Source of the DNA: an uncultured archaeon
GTDB lineage: Archaea > Asgardarchaeota > Lokiarchaeia > Sigyniarchaeales > SOKP01
NCBI GenBank assembly: GCA_964508365.1
Contig: CAZDTP010000001.1
Coordinates: 1-64,000, forward strand
DNA length: 64,000 nucleotides
Direction: 5' to 3'
Shown: positions 15,475 through 21,765 of the stretch, in pieces
How positions within the stretch are numbered: the stretch's first letter is position 1
Layout of the letters: each line of letters starts with the position of its first letter
Notes under the pieces: model-generated
The model's database searches: none
The model's input: only the letters and a program-made list of their open reading frames with translations
Told to the model about the DNA's origin: nothing
Program-made: the position numbers and the translations under genes

Positions 15475-15897
15475 ATGGAAAAGCATTCTAGCGAAAATTT
15501 GAAGGAAGAACCTAATATTGAAAATTTGAAGAAGAAAGTTGGATTTGGAATCAAATTTTGGTTAGAATTTCAAGATAACCCGCGTGAAAATATTCTAGGC
15601 TCTGGATGGGCAAATCTTCTTGAAAGTATTTATATAACAAATAATAACGAACCAAAGTCTTTGACTCAAGCAGCGAAAGAATGCGGATATTCATACAAAT
15701 ATGCGTGGAATATTTTAAACAAGATAAAGGAGAGAACTGGGAAATCACCAGTAGAAACTAAAAAAGGAGGTACTGGAGGCGGGGGGTGGGTCAAACTGAA
15801 TAAGTGGGGGATATATTTGTTAAATACATATAAAAAACTCTTGATTGAATTACAAGAAGTCGAGAAGAAACTCGAAAAAACCTTTAAAATTGATTAA
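15475..15897 (+). CDS. ModE-like winged-helix transcriptional regulator (stand-alone N-terminal domain)
   Basis: LLESI..SLTQAAKECGYSYKYAW..L..I and KGG.GGG wing motif. Confidence 0.85.
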   Translation: MEKHSSENLKEEPNIENLKKKVGFGIKFWLEFQDNPRENILGSGWANLLESIYITNNNEPKSLTQAAKECGYSYKYAWNILNKIKERTGKSPVETKKGGTGGGGWVKLNKWGIYLLNTYKKLLIELQEVEKKLEKTFKID

Positions 15898-16162
15898 GAA
15901 GAATAATTTATCTTTATAATCGAGTTCCACAACACAGTAAATTCTTGTCAATTGAAGTTGTTACGAGACAACAATCATCGAAGGAGTATTTAAATAACTA
16001 TAAGATTAAATAAACATCTAATATAATATTCTAATTATCCGTCCTCTTTAGGAAAAATTATTTAATTAAAGAAAATCATTTTATTATATTATTGTACTAA
16101 TACTTAAATTTAGATATTTATATAGAAGAACATAGCATTTTAAAATTTACAATTGATTACAT

Positions 16163-17689
16163 ATGGCAATACCTCTTCCCGGAACACCAATTATTGTAGA
16201 CATTGGTTCAGCTTATTCTAAAATAGGATTCGCAGGAGAACCAAGTCCAAGATTTGTATTCCCAACAATAACTGGAACTGAAAAATATAAAGCAGTAATG
16301 GTTGATGTAGGAGCTCGCAATATCTATGTTGGTTCAGACGCTTCAAAAATGCGAGGTGTTCTGAAAATTAAACATCCAATAGATAGGGGTGCGATTTTGG
16401 ATTGGAACGATTACTATGAAATTTTGAATTACATATTCTATTCACTTCTACGAATTGAAAATCTATCTAATTATCCGGTGTTATATACTGAACCCCCGTT
16501 TTTACCCCAAGAAACTAAAGAATATATTGCTCGCGTTTTGTACGAAACGCATAAAGTAAGAAGTTTAATAATGATTCCAACACCTGTATTATCCTTATTC
16601 AGCGTAGGATTAACAACTGGAATTGTGATAGAGAGTGGCGATGGTACATCGTGGATATGCCCGATTATAAGTGGGGAGATTGTAGAACAATCCGTACAAA
16701 AATTAACATTAGCGGGAACAGATGTTAATCAACATCTAAAGAATTTATTAATGCGAGAGGGAATAAATATAGAGTCGAGTGCAGTAGATGAGATTATTAA
16801 AAACATAAAAGAGCAGAACTGTTTTTTTGCATTAGATCCTGAAAACCCTCCTAATTTAGATGACAACTTTATCTTCACTATGCCAGATGGATCAAATATT
16901 AGTATTCCTAATTACATATTTCATGAAGCTCCCGAAGTATTATTCAAACCAAATTTATTAGGTTATAACATTTTAAATATTCCACAAGCGGTAATTAATA
17001 GTGTTAAAAGCATTGACAAGTATTACTGGAGCGATCTTTTGTCTCATATTATGCTTTCGGGTGGAAATCTATCCTATTCTGGCTTCGAAGAACGATTACG
17101 AACAGAGCTAGTTCAATTAGTCCCTCAACTAGGAAAAATACCAAAACCAAAAATAATAAAACCCTCTAAAAACGAAAAGCAAAAAATGAAATTAAAAGAA
17201 AGAAGTATAAAGAAAGAAGATACATGCCCTCATTGTGGAATTTTTGTAGATTTAACTGACGGTAAAGAATTTTGTCCTGTTTGTAACGGGAGAATTGTCT
17301 TGCCAGAACTTACAATTGGCAGCACTAGATTACCTAAGAATCCTAAATTGGATAATGGTAATTTACTCTGTCCTAATTGTAAGAAGTTAATAGAAGATGC
17401 ATCATCTGTATTTTGTCCTTATTGTGGGGCAAGTTTTCAATTGAAACCATTACCAGAGATACCGCCTGAAATAGTAAAACAACCTCCTCCTGCAGTGGAA
17501 TTTTCTGGATTTTATGAGTCTTCTGATGAAGTTTTAAAGTTTTATGTTCCCGAAAATCTGCAATTTGCGATTTTTAATGGTGCTAGTATTCTTGGATCAC
17601 TCCCTTCGTTTCAAAGTTTATTTGTTAGCTATGAAGAATTTAAAACCAATAGTGCTGCTTTGTACAAAAATATAAGTGAAATATTTTAG
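16163..17689 (+). CDS. Actin-family (actin-related) protein with zinc-ribbon insertion
   Basis: DIGSAYSKIGFAGEPSPRFVFP (P1 loop), HPIDRG, TEPP, ESGDG (P2 loop), LSGG, GASILGSL, EEF; insertion with CPHC/CPVC/CPNC/CPYC. Confidence 0.93.
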   Translation: MAIPLPGTPIIVDIGSAYSKIGFAGEPSPRFVFPTITGTEKYKAVMVDVGARNIYVGSDASKMRGVLKIKHPIDRGAILDWNDYYEILNYIFYSLLRIENLSNYPVLYTEPPFLPQETKEYIARVLYETHKVRSLIMIPTPVLSLFSVGLTTGIVIESGDGTSWICPIISGEIVEQSVQKLTLAGTDVNQHLKNLLMREGINIESSAVDEIIKNIKEQNCFFALDPENPPNLDDNFIFTMPDGSNISIPNYIFHEAPEVLFKPNLLGYNILNIPQAVINSVKSIDKYYWSDLLSHIMLSGGNLSYSGFEERLRTELVQLVPQLGKIPKPKIIKPSKNEKQKMKLKERSIKKEDTCPHCGIFVDLTDGKEFCPVCNGRIVLPELTIGSTRLPKNPKLDNGNLLCPNCKKLIEDASSVFCPYCGASFQLKPLPEIPPEIVKQPPPAVEFSGFYESSDEVLKFYVPENLQFAIFNGASILGSLPSFQSLFVSYEEFKTNSAALYKNISEIF

Positions 17690-17824
17690 CAGTAATATTT
17701 AGCTTTCATATTTTTAATTTTATCTTAATTTGCATAATAATCCAACTATAAACTCAAAATATCGTTAATTTTTAATTACAAGTTAAATTTTAAAAATTAA
17801 ATTTAGTTAAAACCAGATTGGGGT

Positions 17825-18946
17825 TTGTATTTATTGAAAAACAAACATCGGAAATTATCATTAGGACTATTACTCATTATTACTTTTCTTTGTAGTATTA
17901 CCCCTGTAGCTTTAGCGAAAACCCGGCAGAACCACTTAATTGATTTTCTTTACGATAACCGGAATACCGATGGTACTTTTGGCATTGCTTATCAAGATAC
18001 AGCATATGCTATAGAAATTATAGATTATTTCAATGCATATTCTGTGGAAGTCTTATTTGAGGAAACTAAAAGTGTAGATATCGCAACATTAAAAGAATTT
18101 CTGATAGATCAGATACAAATAATGTTTGATGTTGAAAGTATTGATTTGTACAAGTTATTATATTATCTAGACACTCTTAACAGAATGGAGTCTCTAGAAA
18201 CATCTTTAGGTTCAAGTCTACACAATGATATTCATCGATATTTAAACGAAACGATTCAAATTGGGGGTGGATTTGGTCCCACAAATACATCAACGACAGC
18301 AAATATGGTTTCAACTTTCTTCGTATATAACATATACGCCATAATGAAAGAACCAGTTGTAAACCAAACAGTTCATAAATCCTGGGTTTTGTCATGTAAT
18401 AATACTGATGGAGGTTATGGCGGAGATCAATCTTTATCTTCTACAATAATCACGACTTATTTTGCCGTTTATCTTGTCAATGAATTAGGAAATGTAAATG
18501 ATCTTGTCAACAAATCTAAAACTCTAAAATATTTTGAATCTTTTTACATTGATGATCCAGATAACATTGGAAATTTTGGGGGATATTTACCAGATTTTCT
18601 CGCCGATAATACTTTGTTAACTAGTACTTTTTACTGTGTTAAAGGCATTGAGCTAATAGATGAAAATGAATTACATGGAATTAATACGGTAAACTGGGTT
18701 TTGAATCACCAAAACTTTCTCGATGGTGGCTTTGGTGATTGGGTTGAAGGAAACGATCAGAGAACTTCATCAGTCAGTACATCTTTTTACGCATTTAAAC
18801 TCTTAGAGACTTTTAATTCGTTAGAAGATTTAAATGAAGATGTTTTCACCGTTGAATTTAGCTACTTAATGTTGATAATAATTCCTTCAATTATTGGAGT
18901 TATTATAGCAATAATCTATTTTTTGATTCGACGGAGAAGAATATAA
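17825..18946 (+). CDS. Secreted/membrane-anchored prenyltransferase/squalene-cyclase-repeat (alpha/alpha barrel) protein
   Basis: N-terminal signal-like segment; repeated N.DGG[FY]G......S....T[FY].A motifs; C-terminal TM followed by RRRR. Confidence 0.8.
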   Translation: MYLLKNKHRKLSLGLLLIITFLCSITPVALAKTRQNHLIDFLYDNRNTDGTFGIAYQDTAYAIEIIDYFNAYSVEVLFEETKSVDIATLKEFLIDQIQIMFDVESIDLYKLLYYLDTLNRMESLETSLGSSLHNDIHRYLNETIQIGGGFGPTNTSTTANMVSTFFVYNIYAIMKEPVVNQTVHKSWVLSCNNTDGGYGGDQSLSSTIITTYFAVYLVNELGNVNDLVNKSKTLKYFESFYIDDPDNIGNFGGYLPDFLADNTLLTSTFYCVKGIELIDENELHGINTVNWVLNHQNFLDGGFGDWVEGNDQRTSSVSTSFYAFKLLETFNSLEDLNEDVFTVEFSYLMLIIIPSIIGVIIAIIYFLIRRRRI

Positions 18947-20082: not shown

Positions 20083-20538
20083 ATGGCTATTCTGGAGCTT
20101 GGTATAAATTTAGGTGTAAGGAACATATTAAACAAAAAATATTATGATTCCGATACAGGCGTAGGATTAGATCCAGAATTAAGAGCCGGATTCCTCTCTG
20201 CTCTCGAAAGTTTCACATCTGAGGTTTTTGGAGATGATATAAATGTGATTTCCTTAGCCTCTTTTAAACTAGTTTGTTATTGTGATTTAGTTGCTTTACC
20301 AAACGATGAAACCAATAAGCAACCATTAATATCTTTTGCTATAACCGAGAAAAAAACAGAGTCCGAAGTAGTTAAAAAGCATTTAAAAGAAATAAATTCA
20401 CGTTTTCTTAATAGATATTCTCTTAATGATATTTTTACAAAAAAGGAAAAGTTCTTTAAAGAATTTGAAGAAAGAGTTGATAATATCATAGGAGATTTGA
20501 GATTAAAAACAGAAGATAGGTTTCGCTCCATATTCTAA
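20083..20538 (+). CDS. Longin/roadblock-like domain protein
   Basis: GFLSALESFTSEV helix then beta strands and a C-terminal F..RF...F helix, typical of Asgard longin-like folds (visual match only). Confidence 0.65.
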   Translation: MAILELGINLGVRNILNKKYYDSDTGVGLDPELRAGFLSALESFTSEVFGDDINVISLASFKLVCYCDLVALPNDETNKQPLISFAITEKKTESEVVKKHLKEINSRFLNRYSLNDIFTKKEKFFKEFEERVDNIIGDLRLKTEDRFRSIF

Positions 20539-20562
20539 TTTTTTCTTTAGGGGGCATTTTTT

Positions 20563-21765
20563 ATGAGTTCAAATATAGGATCAGAAGCGCAAGCAGCGTA
20601 TCAAAAATATCTGGATGCCTCATCCATTGATGAAAAAATAAAGCGTTTGGAGGAATTTATTTCTTTAGTTCCCAAACATAAAGCTACGGAAAAAATTGTT
20701 GCTTTAAATAAATCTCGATTAGCTAAGCTTAGAAGAGAGCAGGAAGCGTTAAAATCCCGAGCTATGACTACTGGTAAGCAAGTTAGTCCTTTTTCAATAA
20801 AAAAAGAAGGAATTCAACTGATTCTAATAAGTGATTATCATTCTCCAGGTGTTGGTAAAACCTCTCTGTTGAATTTATTAACAGGCGCAGCAAGAGACAA
20901 AATTGGAAAATTTACTCCAGTACCTGAAATTGGGATCTATAAGGATAAAAAAATACGGTATCAAATAGTTGACATGCCTTCGATAATGGAAGGAGCTTCA
21001 AGTGGGATTGGGAATGGAAGAGAAATCATCTCCCAATTAAGAGCATGTGATTTGATCTGCTTTTGCGTAGATTTATCTCGTAATTACAAAAATCAAATTG
21101 ACTTGCTTTTGAATGAACTAAACAAATCACATGTGAGAATCAATGTTCAACCTCCTCCCCTTACAATTGAGAAAACTGGCTCAAATAAAATTCAGGTATT
21201 TTATTTAACTAATGAAGCTAAAGAGCTGAATGATGTTGAAGATTTAACGGAAAGAATTAAAGAAATCACTCATGCTGGGGGTATTCGGAATGGCTTAGTC
21301 AAAGTATTTGGTAAGATCGAACTCGATCAAGTTGTCGATACATTAAATCCTTCTGTAGTTTATAAAAAAGCTATTATTTTAGGAACAAAGGGGGACTTAG
21401 CGCTAACTAAAAGTACTTTCTCAGAATTAGAAAAATTTTATTCACACATATTTCCCTTGGTTATCGGAACGAGCGCGGAAAAGAAAAAACTCCCTGGTGA
21501 TTTAGGAAAAATTGTTTTAAATTACTTACAAAAAATGAAAGTCTACACAATGAATAAAGGTATAATTGCTGAAAAGCCTTTAATCCTAGATTGTATTCCT
21601 AATCAACCAACGATCAGAGATGTTACATTAAAGATACACAGAACTTTTCTCGAATCATTTGATTACGCAATAGTTATTAGAAAAAAGGCTAGGCAAACAA
21701 AAAAAAAGGTAGGATTAGAATACGAATTAAAAGAGAATGACATCATTGAGTTACACACTAAATAA
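20563..21765 (+). CDS. DRG/OBG-family GTPase with TGS domain (divergent G motifs)
   Basis: Archaeal DRG N-terminus (EEKI..LEEF...PKHK.TEK), GVGKTS, FTP, DMPS, TKGD; C-terminal TGS-like IH..F...F.YA.....L...DI. Confidence 0.85.
   Translation: MSSNIGSEAQAAYQKYLDASSIDEKIKRLEEFISLVPKHKATEKIVALNKSRLAKLRREQEALKSRAMTTGKQVSPFSIKKEGIQLILISDYHSPGVGKTSLLNLLTGAARDKIGKFTPVPEIGIYKDKKIRYQIVDMPSIMEGASSGIGNGREIISQLRACDLICFCVDLSRNYKNQIDLLLNELNKSHVRINVQPPPLTIEKTGSNKIQVFYLTNEAKELNDVEDLTERIKEITHAGGIRNGLVKVFGKIELDQVVDTLNPSVVYKKAIILGTKGDLALTKSTFSELEKFYSHIFPLVIGTSAEKKKLPGDLGKIVLNYLQKMKVYTMNKGIIAEKPLILDCIPNQPTIRDVTLKIHRTFLESFDYAIVIRKKARQTKKKVGLEYELKENDIIELHTK

Follow-up and report, generated by a model that had tools for sequence, protein, structure and literature searches.

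A Loki-type Asgard actin-related protein with a double zinc-ribbon insertion in subdomain 3

Eukaryotic Arp11, a component of dynactin, as well as Arp2 and Arp3 bind a filament end with one actin-like face and have their second face blocked or specialised, and Arp11 and Arp2/3 sit at pointed ends. Nuclear Arp8 and Arp5 gain their function via large insertions in a non-polymerising actin fold (PMC3510490, PMC4191963). In Asgard archaea, Lokiactin drives protrusions and crawling (PMC9834061; PMC13716822), and the functions of the actin-related proteins (ARPs) have been stated as unknown (PMC7444086). One of three 'ARPs' of Candidatus Lokiarchaeum ossiferum described by Rodrigues-Oliveira et al. 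(2022) is UYP44711.1, which the published tree sets among 'Asgard and eukaryotic ARPs' with no named orthologue and whose insert goes unmentioned (PMC9834061). Zinc ribbons as such have an archaeal precedent as cytoskeleton and membrane adaptors: the two C4/C3H zinc ribbons of Haloferax volcanii CdpC, connected by a disordered linker, bind the FtsZ1 polymer and the membrane (bioRxiv 10.64898/2026.07.16.738847).

Here, an ARP gene was analyzed that lies on a 64,000-nucleotide stretch of Asgard DNA (the window). The gene, its parts and its two neighbours are arranged as follows.

15475..15897, + strand: upstream neighbour, a 140-aa ModE-N-type winged-helix protein (TIGR00637, E 2.2e-13, below cut-off)
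16163..17689, + strand: whole open reading frame of the zinc-ribbon ARP, a single ATG-to-stop frame of 508 aa plus stop; full-length orthologues exist
16163..17140, + strand: N-terminal part of the actin core, aa 1-326 (subdomains 1, 2, 4 and most of 3)
16280..16324, + strand: D-loop equivalent, aa 40-54, EKYKAVMVDVGARNI, with M46 corresponding by alignment to actin Met44; AF2 pLDDT <50 for aa 46-50, as expected of a flexible loop
16580..16582, + strand: codon of T140, equivalent to actin Gln137, which positions the catalytic water
16652..16654, + strand: codon of W164, at the position of actin His161
16667..16690, + strand: W-loop equivalent, aa 169-176, IISGEIVE (actin 165-172, IYEGYALP)
17141..17533, + strand: inserted module, aa 327-457, composed of a two-stranded stalk (aa 327-329 and 447-450) plus three flexible linkers and a pair of zinc ribbons; boundaries by alignment to canonical actin
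17222..17296, + strand: zinc ribbon 1, aa 354-378, CPHC...CPVC
17366..17437, + strand: zinc ribbon 2, aa 402-425, CPNC...CPYC, motif SxFCPYCG
17534..17686, + strand: C-terminal part of the actin core, aa 458-508 (final strand and helices belonging to subdomains 3 and 1, with the groove residues)
17825..18946, + strand: downstream neighbour with a signal peptide, a prenyltransferase-type alpha/alpha toroid (PF00432, E 2e-14), a C-terminal TM helix and a basic tail of 4-6 residues

Pfam Actin (PF00022) covered aa 9-338 of the ARP (E 4.9e-70), and in phmmer searches PDB actins aligned to aa 6-334 and again to aa 458-500 (E ~1e-68), demonstrating that the actin fold is interrupted and not truncated. 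Both nucleotide loops are in place, P1 with D13, G15, S16 and K20 and P2 with E157-S-G-D160-G161, so that the complete fold with intact loops claimed in an earlier note on this DNA was borne out. The insert of ~131 aa sits in the loop equivalent to actin 327/328 in subdomain 3; the note had placed it at ~17132-17530, a few bases off the bounds given by the alignment. Its four CxxC pairs, CPHC (aa 355-358, nt 17225-17236), CPVC (aa 371-374), CPNC (aa 403-406) and CPYC (aa 418-421, nt 17414-17425), lie within 17225-17425 exactly as reported there. DZR (PF12773) matched aa 355-422 with 28.7 bits (curated cut-off 27.3) and Zn_ribbon_3 matched aa 403-423 with 30.2 bits (cut-off 27), and zinc binding by the two C4 ribbons is predicted from the Cys pattern.

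In the AF2 model (mean pLDDT 83.8, superseding a run on a shallow alignment with 68.8) the core was predicted with a pLDDT >90 and the ribbons with ~72-75, while the linkers at aa 333-348, 382-392 and 429-442 remained <50. Foldseek gave TM values of 0.77-0.81 to actins. Among relatives, the linkers vary in sequence and are conserved in length. Linker 1 was also considered as an amphipathic or WH2-like helix, which was dropped: a helical appearance was noted in one subgroup, and in this ARP the linker is highly charged and modelled with a pLDDT <50.

To define the distribution of the family, Asgard genomes were searched for the insert-bearing ARP, as had been proposed. From one GTDB order (Loki-type Asgard archaea), 153 genomes were covered and ~142 contained a full or partial orthologue. 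None was found in the 246 genomes examined from other Asgard orders; these yielded only cross-hits at the level of Lokiactin. A homologue search returned 307 matches, and the 120 listed were 60-92% identical; 119 of these 120 carry Actin together with a zinc-ribbon domain of Pfam, in each case DZR, the exception being a 463-aa sequence. Representative matches of 742-793 aa were rejected as further insert-bearing actins, being tandem double-actin proteins. All eight zinc-ribbon Cys residues (355, 358, 371 and 374 in ribbon 1; 403, 406, 418 and 421 in ribbon 2) were invariant across 54 close relatives. Ribbon 1 is present in all family members examined, and ribbon 2 is missing in L. ossiferum and in one other family (f4).

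In the tree, whose other representatives were all unnamed, the 30 sampled members formed one clade (SH-aLRT 100) on a long stem apart from Lokiactin, with no clear sister group. The Lokiactin clade is ~80-99% identical across the order and the ARP lies outside it with 36% identity; it is a separate protein, and its earlier description as an ARP carrying a double zinc-ribbon insertion is supported. PDB matches had similar E-values for actin (5e-68) and Arp1 (2.8e-66), and Arp1 and dynactin chains were among them. The canonical Lokiactin of the same genome is encoded on another contig. The ARP gene is genuine, specific to one Asgard order and an orthologue of UYP44711.1, and the module entered the subdomain-3 loop once; it combines a short beta-stalk with three linkers and a pair of C4 zinc ribbons.

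UYP44711.1 was matched to the orthologue found here through its published qPCR primers 361F and 731R, which lie in that gene. It shares with the window's ARP the clade, the insertion site, the first zinc ribbon and the neighbouring genes (ModE-like, toroid and FolD). It differs in sequence (~37-41% identity) and has one ribbon instead of two; it keeps His161 and has a degenerate P2 loop (ELGCG), whereas the window's ARP has W164 and an intact P2 loop. As UYP44711.1 is nested among two-ribbon members, its single ribbon is a secondary loss. The earlier note did not recognise the architecture among described actins. This holds for the literature, in which our search found no paper describing the insert, but not for the databases: besides UYP44711.1, the ESM Atlas holds a cluster of 79 members with this architecture, and members are labelled 'zinc ribbon domain-containing' or 'actin-related protein' at NCBI and JGI. 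An ESM Atlas search with the insert alone retrieved only generic DZR clusters (0.78-0.82, below the meaningful level). Within the ARP's own genome, the insert as query retrieved no second, paralogous pair of ribbons; the sole other match (E 0.01) contains stops.

Subsequently, the nucleotide site was compared across 67 family members, comprising 54 close relatives and 13 members of other families. The equivalents of actin D11, G13, K18, G156, G158, E214, G301 and G302 were invariant in all 67, and K213 was kept in 66 (12 of the 13 from other families). In ARP numbering, D13, G15, K20, G159, G161, K216, E217, G300 and G301 were invariant in the close relatives and D160 was found in 52 of 54; the corresponding actin D157 position is mostly replaced in the other families (kept in 1/13). 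The catalytic pair of polymerising actins, Gln137 and His161, is not kept by the family. The Gln137 position, Q in Lokiactin, is T, S or A in 67/67, and His161 is lost in 66/67, with W in 54/54 close relatives and F, T, W or S in the other families, where H occurs in 1/13 (L. ossiferum). H73 is replaced by R in 67/67. The replacement of Q137 and H161 by T140 and W164 had escaped the earlier note. Phosphate- and adenosine-binding residues are retained while the water-activating Gln137 and His161 are replaced, from which we infer that the ARP binds nucleotide and hydrolyses it poorly. It would be a regulator present at low abundance and not a bulk polymer, in keeping with the lower transcript level of the L. 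ossiferum orthologue relative to Lokiactin (PMC9834061).

The surfaces that contact neighbouring subunits in a filament were examined likewise. Met44 of the D-loop is kept in 62/67 and replaced by Leu in 5, and the D-loop motif reads KY..VMVDV in the ARP and KY..IMTDV in Lokiactin. In actin, an aromatic residue of the W-loop clamps Met44 of the neighbouring subunit (bioRxiv 10.1101/2023.05.12.540494). This aromatic clamp is absent from the family: the position of Tyr169 (Phe in Lokiactin) is Q, E, K, T, R, L, V or I, and that of Tyr166 is non-aromatic and mostly aliphatic, each in 67/67. The floor of the barbed-end groove is conserved as well as the core (Y143F, L346, L349, T351S, F352, M355L, W356F); therefore, the barbed face is not simply dead, and the groove may take a D-loop, gelsolin, profilin or part of the insert. 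The family also conserves the D-loop, the hydrophobic floor of the groove and a large part of the H-plug. The subdomain-3 surfaces 283-294 and 319-327 are 22% and 14% identical to Lokiactin (36% overall), and the lateral-contact stretch 110-115 is 14% identical. Stalk and insert emerge beside residues 307-327, a filament-contact region of subdomain 3 (PMC9200798). The ARP thus has the fold, nucleotide-binding loops, D-loop Met44 and groove floor of Lokiactin and eukaryotic actin, but lacks Gln137, His161, His73 and the W-loop aromatics, has ~36% identity to Lokiactin and carries a 131-aa insert at 327/328.

Conservation of the two faces was compared by residue entropy. With narrow contact lists, entropy was 0.42 for the pointed face, 0.87 for the barbed face and 0.71 overall. 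With broader regions (PMC9200798), the D-loop was at the 24th percentile of windows of the same length and subdomain 4 (228-252) at the 98th, which ranks it with the most variable ones. The outcome of the test depends on the residues counted. It is suggestive of one-sided selection but not significant, and strong one-sided selection is not claimed because the test with broad regions was unexceptional.

From these sequence features, we infer that a role of the ARP as barbed-end terminator or anchor is plausible. In the reading tentatively preferred here, which we regard as possible though short of probable, the ARP would dock via its pointed face on Lokiactin, block elongation and anchor that end through its ribbons. 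The pointed face, with its Met44-equivalent D-loop, would engage the barbed-end groove of Lokiactin, either at the end of a filament or in a monomer. The docked ARP would then not be elongated, because its own W-loop clamp is destroyed and because stalk and insert would protrude from the part of subdomain 3 to which an incoming subunit would bind; the earlier suggestion that the protein is probably non-filament-forming is compatible with the position of the insert next to 307-327. The tethered ribbons would act as protein- or membrane-binding adaptors anchoring the filament end, and their partner may be membrane-located, in the vicinity of the single-pass surface protein encoded next to the ARP gene. 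Counting against this proposal, the groove floor of the barbed face is conserved and the test of the two faces depends on the residues counted; the flexible tethers could also let the insert swing out of the way, and in-vitro capping of filaments is already known from Asgard gelsolins (PMC7444086). The likeness to Arp11, Arp2 and Arp3 is a works-like analogy only: the proposed polarity is opposite, the blocker would be an internal zinc-ribbon insert, orthology is not shown and no accessory subunits are known for the ARP. CdpC differs in being free-standing and acting on FtsZ and not on actin, while the ribbons of the ARP sit inside an actin-fold protein; no sequence relation between the two was detectable, and DUF7093 was not among the Pfam matches of the ARP.

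Alternatively, the ARP could be a non-filament scaffold in a soluble complex, comparable to nuclear Arp4, Arp5 or Arp8, whose basic linker and ribbons would make contact with DNA or RNA, possibly alongside the ModE-type winged-helix protein. We consider this unlikely. In its favour, the hydrolysis residues are gone, the winged-helix gene is directly upstream of the ARP gene in 9 of 13 sampled genomes, and eukaryotic Arp8 binds nucleosomes and DNA via actin-fold insertions (PMC3510490, PMC4191963). Linker 1 has a net charge of ~+4, but this spans -2 to +9 among relatives. Likewise, the ribbons have weak matches to RpoP, Spt4, YacG and TFIIB-type ribbons, but all of them are far below cut-offs. 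With net charges of -1.2 and +0.6 and K+R fractions of 0.06 and 0.12, the two ribbons are near neutral, so that nucleic-acid binding by them, as the earlier note had put forward, has little support; linker 3 is acidic, and so is the core at a net charge of ~-8.5. Further, a pure scaffold would not need the retained D-loop Met and groove. Arp8 and Arp5 also differ in the sites and types of their insertions, zinc ribbons are not reported in them, and no chromatin-remodeller context was seen for the ARP. The Lys-rich linker and the PLPEIPPEIVKQPPPA patch described in the same note were found in the window's ARP, but relatives do not conserve the patch. A run of at least three Pro occurs in the linker of 5/54 relatives and of at most one in 36/54; the patch has high entropy, and the proline fraction of the linker (0.08) is no higher than that of the core. 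Recruitment of profilin-like proteins by this patch is therefore unsupported.

The conserved D-loop, groove floor and much of the H-plug would also suit a specialised actin that polymerises by itself or co-polymerises along Lokiactin filaments, carrying surface ribbons for bundling or cargo attachment, and the long flexible tethers might let the insert exit the interface. This is quite improbable given the loss of the W-loop aromatics in 67/67, the loss of Q137 and H161, which polymerising actins keep, the emergence of insert and stalk beside the 307-327 contact region and the divergence of the lateral stretch 110-115. In addition, RT-qPCR in L. ossiferum found Lokiactin transcripts several-fold above those of other actin homologues, including the ARP orthologue (PMC9834061).

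A role as Lokiactin monomer partner, in which a sequestering or delivery heterodimer forms via the pointed face or the groove, is brought to a site chosen by the ribbons and does not stay on filament ends, would account for the kept D-loop and groove and the lost hydrolysis as the preferred end-binding reading does, and tethered ribbons would suit localisation. In silico nothing separates it from end binding. In Asgard archaea, profilin and gelsolins already serve as monomer binders (PMC7444086), and we judge this role of the ARP to be rather doubtful.

An assembly chimera, raised as a possibility in the earlier note, or a gene-calling artefact, either of them fusing an actin gene with an unrelated gene for a zinc ribbon and suggested by nothing beyond the unusual architecture, is refuted by the same unbroken frame in >100 genomes from many samples, by a 2297-nt contig covering 15823-18119 and hence the whole ARP gene without differences, by a contig from another sample that covers 17375-17973 and crosses the 3' junction of the insert, by the actin fold that picks up again past the insert and by the invariant Cys residues.

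To return to the preferred reading of an end-binding ARP, the gene neighbourhood offers a candidate membrane partner. In 21 of 23 genomes of the order, the toroid gene lies directly downstream of the ARP gene and in the same orientation, and no toroid orthologue was detected in a sample of 88 further Asgard genomes from outside the order. This arrangement of an ARP gene directly upstream of a gene for a single-pass surface alpha/alpha toroid is new here. Intergenic gaps at the locus are 114-265 bp, with no sign of a tight operon. RNA was represented by one 235-nt contig with 3 differences from one metatranscriptome library, too little to claim expression of this ARP gene; evidence of expression comes solely from the published RT-qPCR on the L. 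ossiferum orthologue. The ARP might be the cytoplasmic half of an order-specific two-gene module, sitting on Lokiactin filament ends and coupling these through its ribbons to the membrane at the surface toroid protein. We regard this as very unlikely, and a direct link from toroid to ribbon is doubtful because the cytoplasmic tail of the neighbour has just 4-6 residues.

The order includes the cultured Ca. L. ossiferum, so that the ARP could feasibly be localised, used in pull-downs and assayed in vitro together with Lokiactin. Binding of nucleic acid by the ARP would be a parallel to nuclear Arps. If the two-gene module exists, it would be a primitive transmembrane link from the actin cytoskeleton to the cell surface, with a bearing on protrusions and crawling. 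If the ARP ends or anchors filaments, it would represent a new class of regulator in the archaeal actin toolkit. The family would exemplify, outside eukaryotes, an actin paralogue that was given a new role by domain insertion, as in eukaryotic Arps.

The zinc-ribbon actin-related protein (ARP) is a conserved protein restricted to one order, in which a zinc-ribbon insert of single origin is combined with the loss of catalytic residues and with a fixed gene partner. Its locus comprises the following features.

Features of the ARP locus in the window
15475-15897, + strand: ModE-N-type winged-helix protein, 140 aa (TIGR00637, E 2.2e-13; no Pfam match)
16163-17689, + strand: ARP, 508 aa, a single ORF
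17141-17533, + strand: insert of the ARP, aa 327-457, delimited by alignment to canonical actin and Lokiactin
17825-18946, + strand: toroid protein, 373 aa, prenyltransferase-type alpha/alpha toroid (PF00432, E 2e-14)
20083-21765, + strand: 151-aa protein (no Pfam match) and 400-aa DRG-type GTPase (MMR_HSR1 plus TGS), separated by 24 nt

Pfam assigned Actin to aa 9-338 of the ARP (E 4.9e-70) as well as DZR (aa 355-422) and Zn_ribbon_3 (aa 403-423), each exceeding its cut-off. In a search against PDB sequences, actins matched in two segments (aa 6-334 and 458-500), demonstrating that the actin fold is interrupted and not truncated; the top match was 'HC1 actin' (9wc4, E 1.6e-72), followed by eukaryotic actins and Arp1 at ~1e-67. 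According to the alignment, the insert separates the residues equivalent to actin Ile327 and Lys328, and the four CxxC pairs were found at the positions described in the earlier note.

That note had named an assembly chimera as an observation that would speak against the architecture. A chimera is excluded by homologues, by an ESM Atlas cluster with the same architecture and by metagenome contigs. Of 307 ARP homologues found, 120 were listed; among these, identity was 60-92%, most were 501-511 aa long and 119 contained Actin and DZR, the exception being a 463-aa sequence. The cluster comprises 79 Promethearchaeota proteins (TM 0.77 to the ARP model). In salt-marsh metagenomes, a 2297-nt contig, which may stem from the source sample itself, spans 15823-18119 with zero differences, and a 599-nt contig from a different sample spans 17375-17973 across the 3' junction of the insert.

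To survey ARP orthologues, 399 Asgard genomes were subjected to a six-frame search. Full-length matches were detected in 128 of 135 genomes of the window's own family (f1), and weaker orthologues (40-48% identity, frames of 489-566 aa) in three further families of the same Lokiarchaeia order (f2, 1/1; f3, 9/13; f4, 4/4). The other 246 genomes yielded only Lokiactin-type cross-matches (E 1e-66 to 1e-76, frames of ~384 aa), so that the search for the same insert in further Asgard genomes, proposed earlier, places it in four families of one order. Of the seven f1 genomes in which the search gave nothing, six have a completeness of 61-92%. The other one, G146, is 100% complete; the ARP was not found there with this query, three congeners of similar completeness carry it at ~50% identity, and a lineage-specific loss is possible. 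NCBI labels of close homologues (Hod-, Hermod-, Thor- and Heimdallarchaeota) are at odds with the one-order distribution in this GTDB-based search and are probably inconsistent submitters' labels.

For comparison, 13 ARP loci across the four families were retrieved. One of them, from a 6.04-Mb single-contig genome (L009), holds both published RT-qPCR primers for UYP44711.1, which identifies the genome as Ca. L. ossiferum; its orthologue is one of the three 'ARPs' of Rodrigues-Oliveira et al. 2022 (PMC9834061), who place this protein among Asgard and eukaryotic ARPs. In a quick ML tree all 30 members sampled formed one clade (SH-aLRT 100), separate from Lokiactin and the other paralogues of this genome; its stem of 1.12 is inflated, as insert columns were retained. 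The insertion was gained a single time. Ribbon 1 is universal in the family, whereas ribbon 2 is absent from the basal f4 and from L. ossiferum, which is nested among two-ribbon members and has therefore lost it.

Other actins were noticed as well. The genome of the window, G000, carries two Lokiactin-type genes, on C60 (L002:1474-2520) plus C103 (L007) and on C22 (L001:1498-2661). The canonical one runs off the end of its contig, and C103 probably holds the final ~50 codons; the paralogue is complete, 82% identical and without an ATG before the DNGTG motif, and close copies of it (83-90%) occur in only few f1 genomes. P0128, P0129, P0154 and P0227 (742-793 aa; representative search) contain two full tandem Actin domains according to Pfam.

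The toroid gene lies immediately 3' of the ARP gene on the same strand; of 23 genomes from the four families, 21 keep this adjacency. Its product is a type-I membrane protein: a signal peptide and a C-terminal TM helix are present, and the tail is basic and 4-6 residues long (RRRRI here). In 88 Asgard genomes sampled from outside the order no orthologue was found, only partial matches (E 1e-11 to 1e-14). The ModE-N-type gene directly precedes the ARP gene in 9 of 13 sampled genomes, L. ossiferum included. FolD follows the toroid gene, and within f1 it is followed by the co-oriented 151-aa/GTPase pair, which was not seen in the retrieved loci of f2-f4. Since the intergenic gaps are 114-265 bp, co-transcription is not implied.

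In the actin filament, a pocket that lies above the Tyr169 loop of one subunit clamps Met44 in the D-loop of its neighbour (bioRxiv 10.1101/2023.05.12.540494; PMC9200798). The Met44 equivalent is kept in 62 of 67 members (54 close relatives and 13 members of other families), within a loop similar to that of Lokiactin. The positions of Tyr169 (Phe in Lokiactin) and Tyr166 are non-aromatic in all 67, the latter mostly aliphatic, and Glu167 is mostly replaced by Asn. Identity to Lokiactin is 22% and 14% in the subdomain-3 stretches 283-294 and 319-327 versus 36% overall, and the insert emerges beside region 307-327, a filament contact (Kotila et al., PMC9200798). Together, the D-loop, W-loop, subdomain-3 and insert-site data would fit an ARP that offers its pointed face to the barbed end of Lokiactin and cannot be extended itself. 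This non-extendable barbed-end reading is weakened by the highly conserved groove floor of the barbed end and by a face comparison that depends on the residues chosen: narrow contact lists gave an entropy of 0.42 for the pointed versus 0.87 for the barbed face, while with the broader regions of PMC9200798 no face was exceptional and SD4 228-252 was among the most variable parts. The asymmetry is thus suggestive at most. Tentatively, we favor the ARP as a substoichiometric factor binding Lokiactin ends or monomers; transcription of UYP44711.1 is several-fold below that of Lokiactin (PMC9834061).

The ribbons would tether the Lokiactin-bound ARP to a protein or membrane site. In the AF2 model, built from a 106-row alignment (mean pLDDT 83.8; core >90; <50 at D-loop aa 46-50), strands 327-329 and 447-450, corresponding to the conserved IPKPK and AxEF motifs, form what was read as a short stalk from which the insert rises; the ribbons score ~72-75 each and linkers 333-348, 382-392 and 429-442 <50. 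All eight ribbon cysteines are invariant across the 54 close relatives, in which the linkers vary in sequence (entropy 1.8-2.4 versus 0.7 in the core) and keep their lengths (means 29.5, 21.4 and 31.4 aa). The Pro-rich patch is restricted to the ARP and its nearest kin, with a run of at least three prolines in 5 of 54 relatives. Tethered archaeal zinc ribbons of Haloferax CdpC bind both a cytoskeletal polymer and the membrane (bioRxiv 10.64898/2026.07.16.738847), a likeness that is analogy and not homology. The ARP might instead be a nucleic-acid-binding scaffold, which we consider unlikely; net charge is +4.1 in linker 1, -1.2 and +0.6 in the ribbons and -3.4 in linker 3.

In the active site, D11, G13, K18, G156, G158, E214, G301 and G302 (actin numbering) are invariant in all 67 members and K213 is retained in 66, while D157 is retained in 52 of 54 close relatives versus 1 of 13 members of other families. 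D154 is changed to Glu in 66 of 67, Gln137 to Thr, Ser or Ala and His73 to Arg in all; Asn111 is replaced in 65, and the listed counts show Arg183 replaced in every case. At the His161 position each of the 54 close relatives has Trp, and only one of the 67 members retains His. Gln137 and His161 are the residues by which actin positions the attacking water. This pattern suggests that the ARP binds nucleotide and that hydrolysis is weak or absent. A specialised actin, self- or co-polymerising, is quite improbable. A role as partner for monomer delivery appears about equally doubtful. An artefact is hardly credible.

The architecture had been described as unrecognised among actins. This does not hold for the family itself, which is present in databases and has one member in a published tree, but our literature search turned up no published description of the insert or of the family's function, and the functions of Asgard ARPs were stated to be unknown in 2020 (PMC7444086). 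New here are the systematic count of the ARP neighbourhood and a face test with a weaker outcome.
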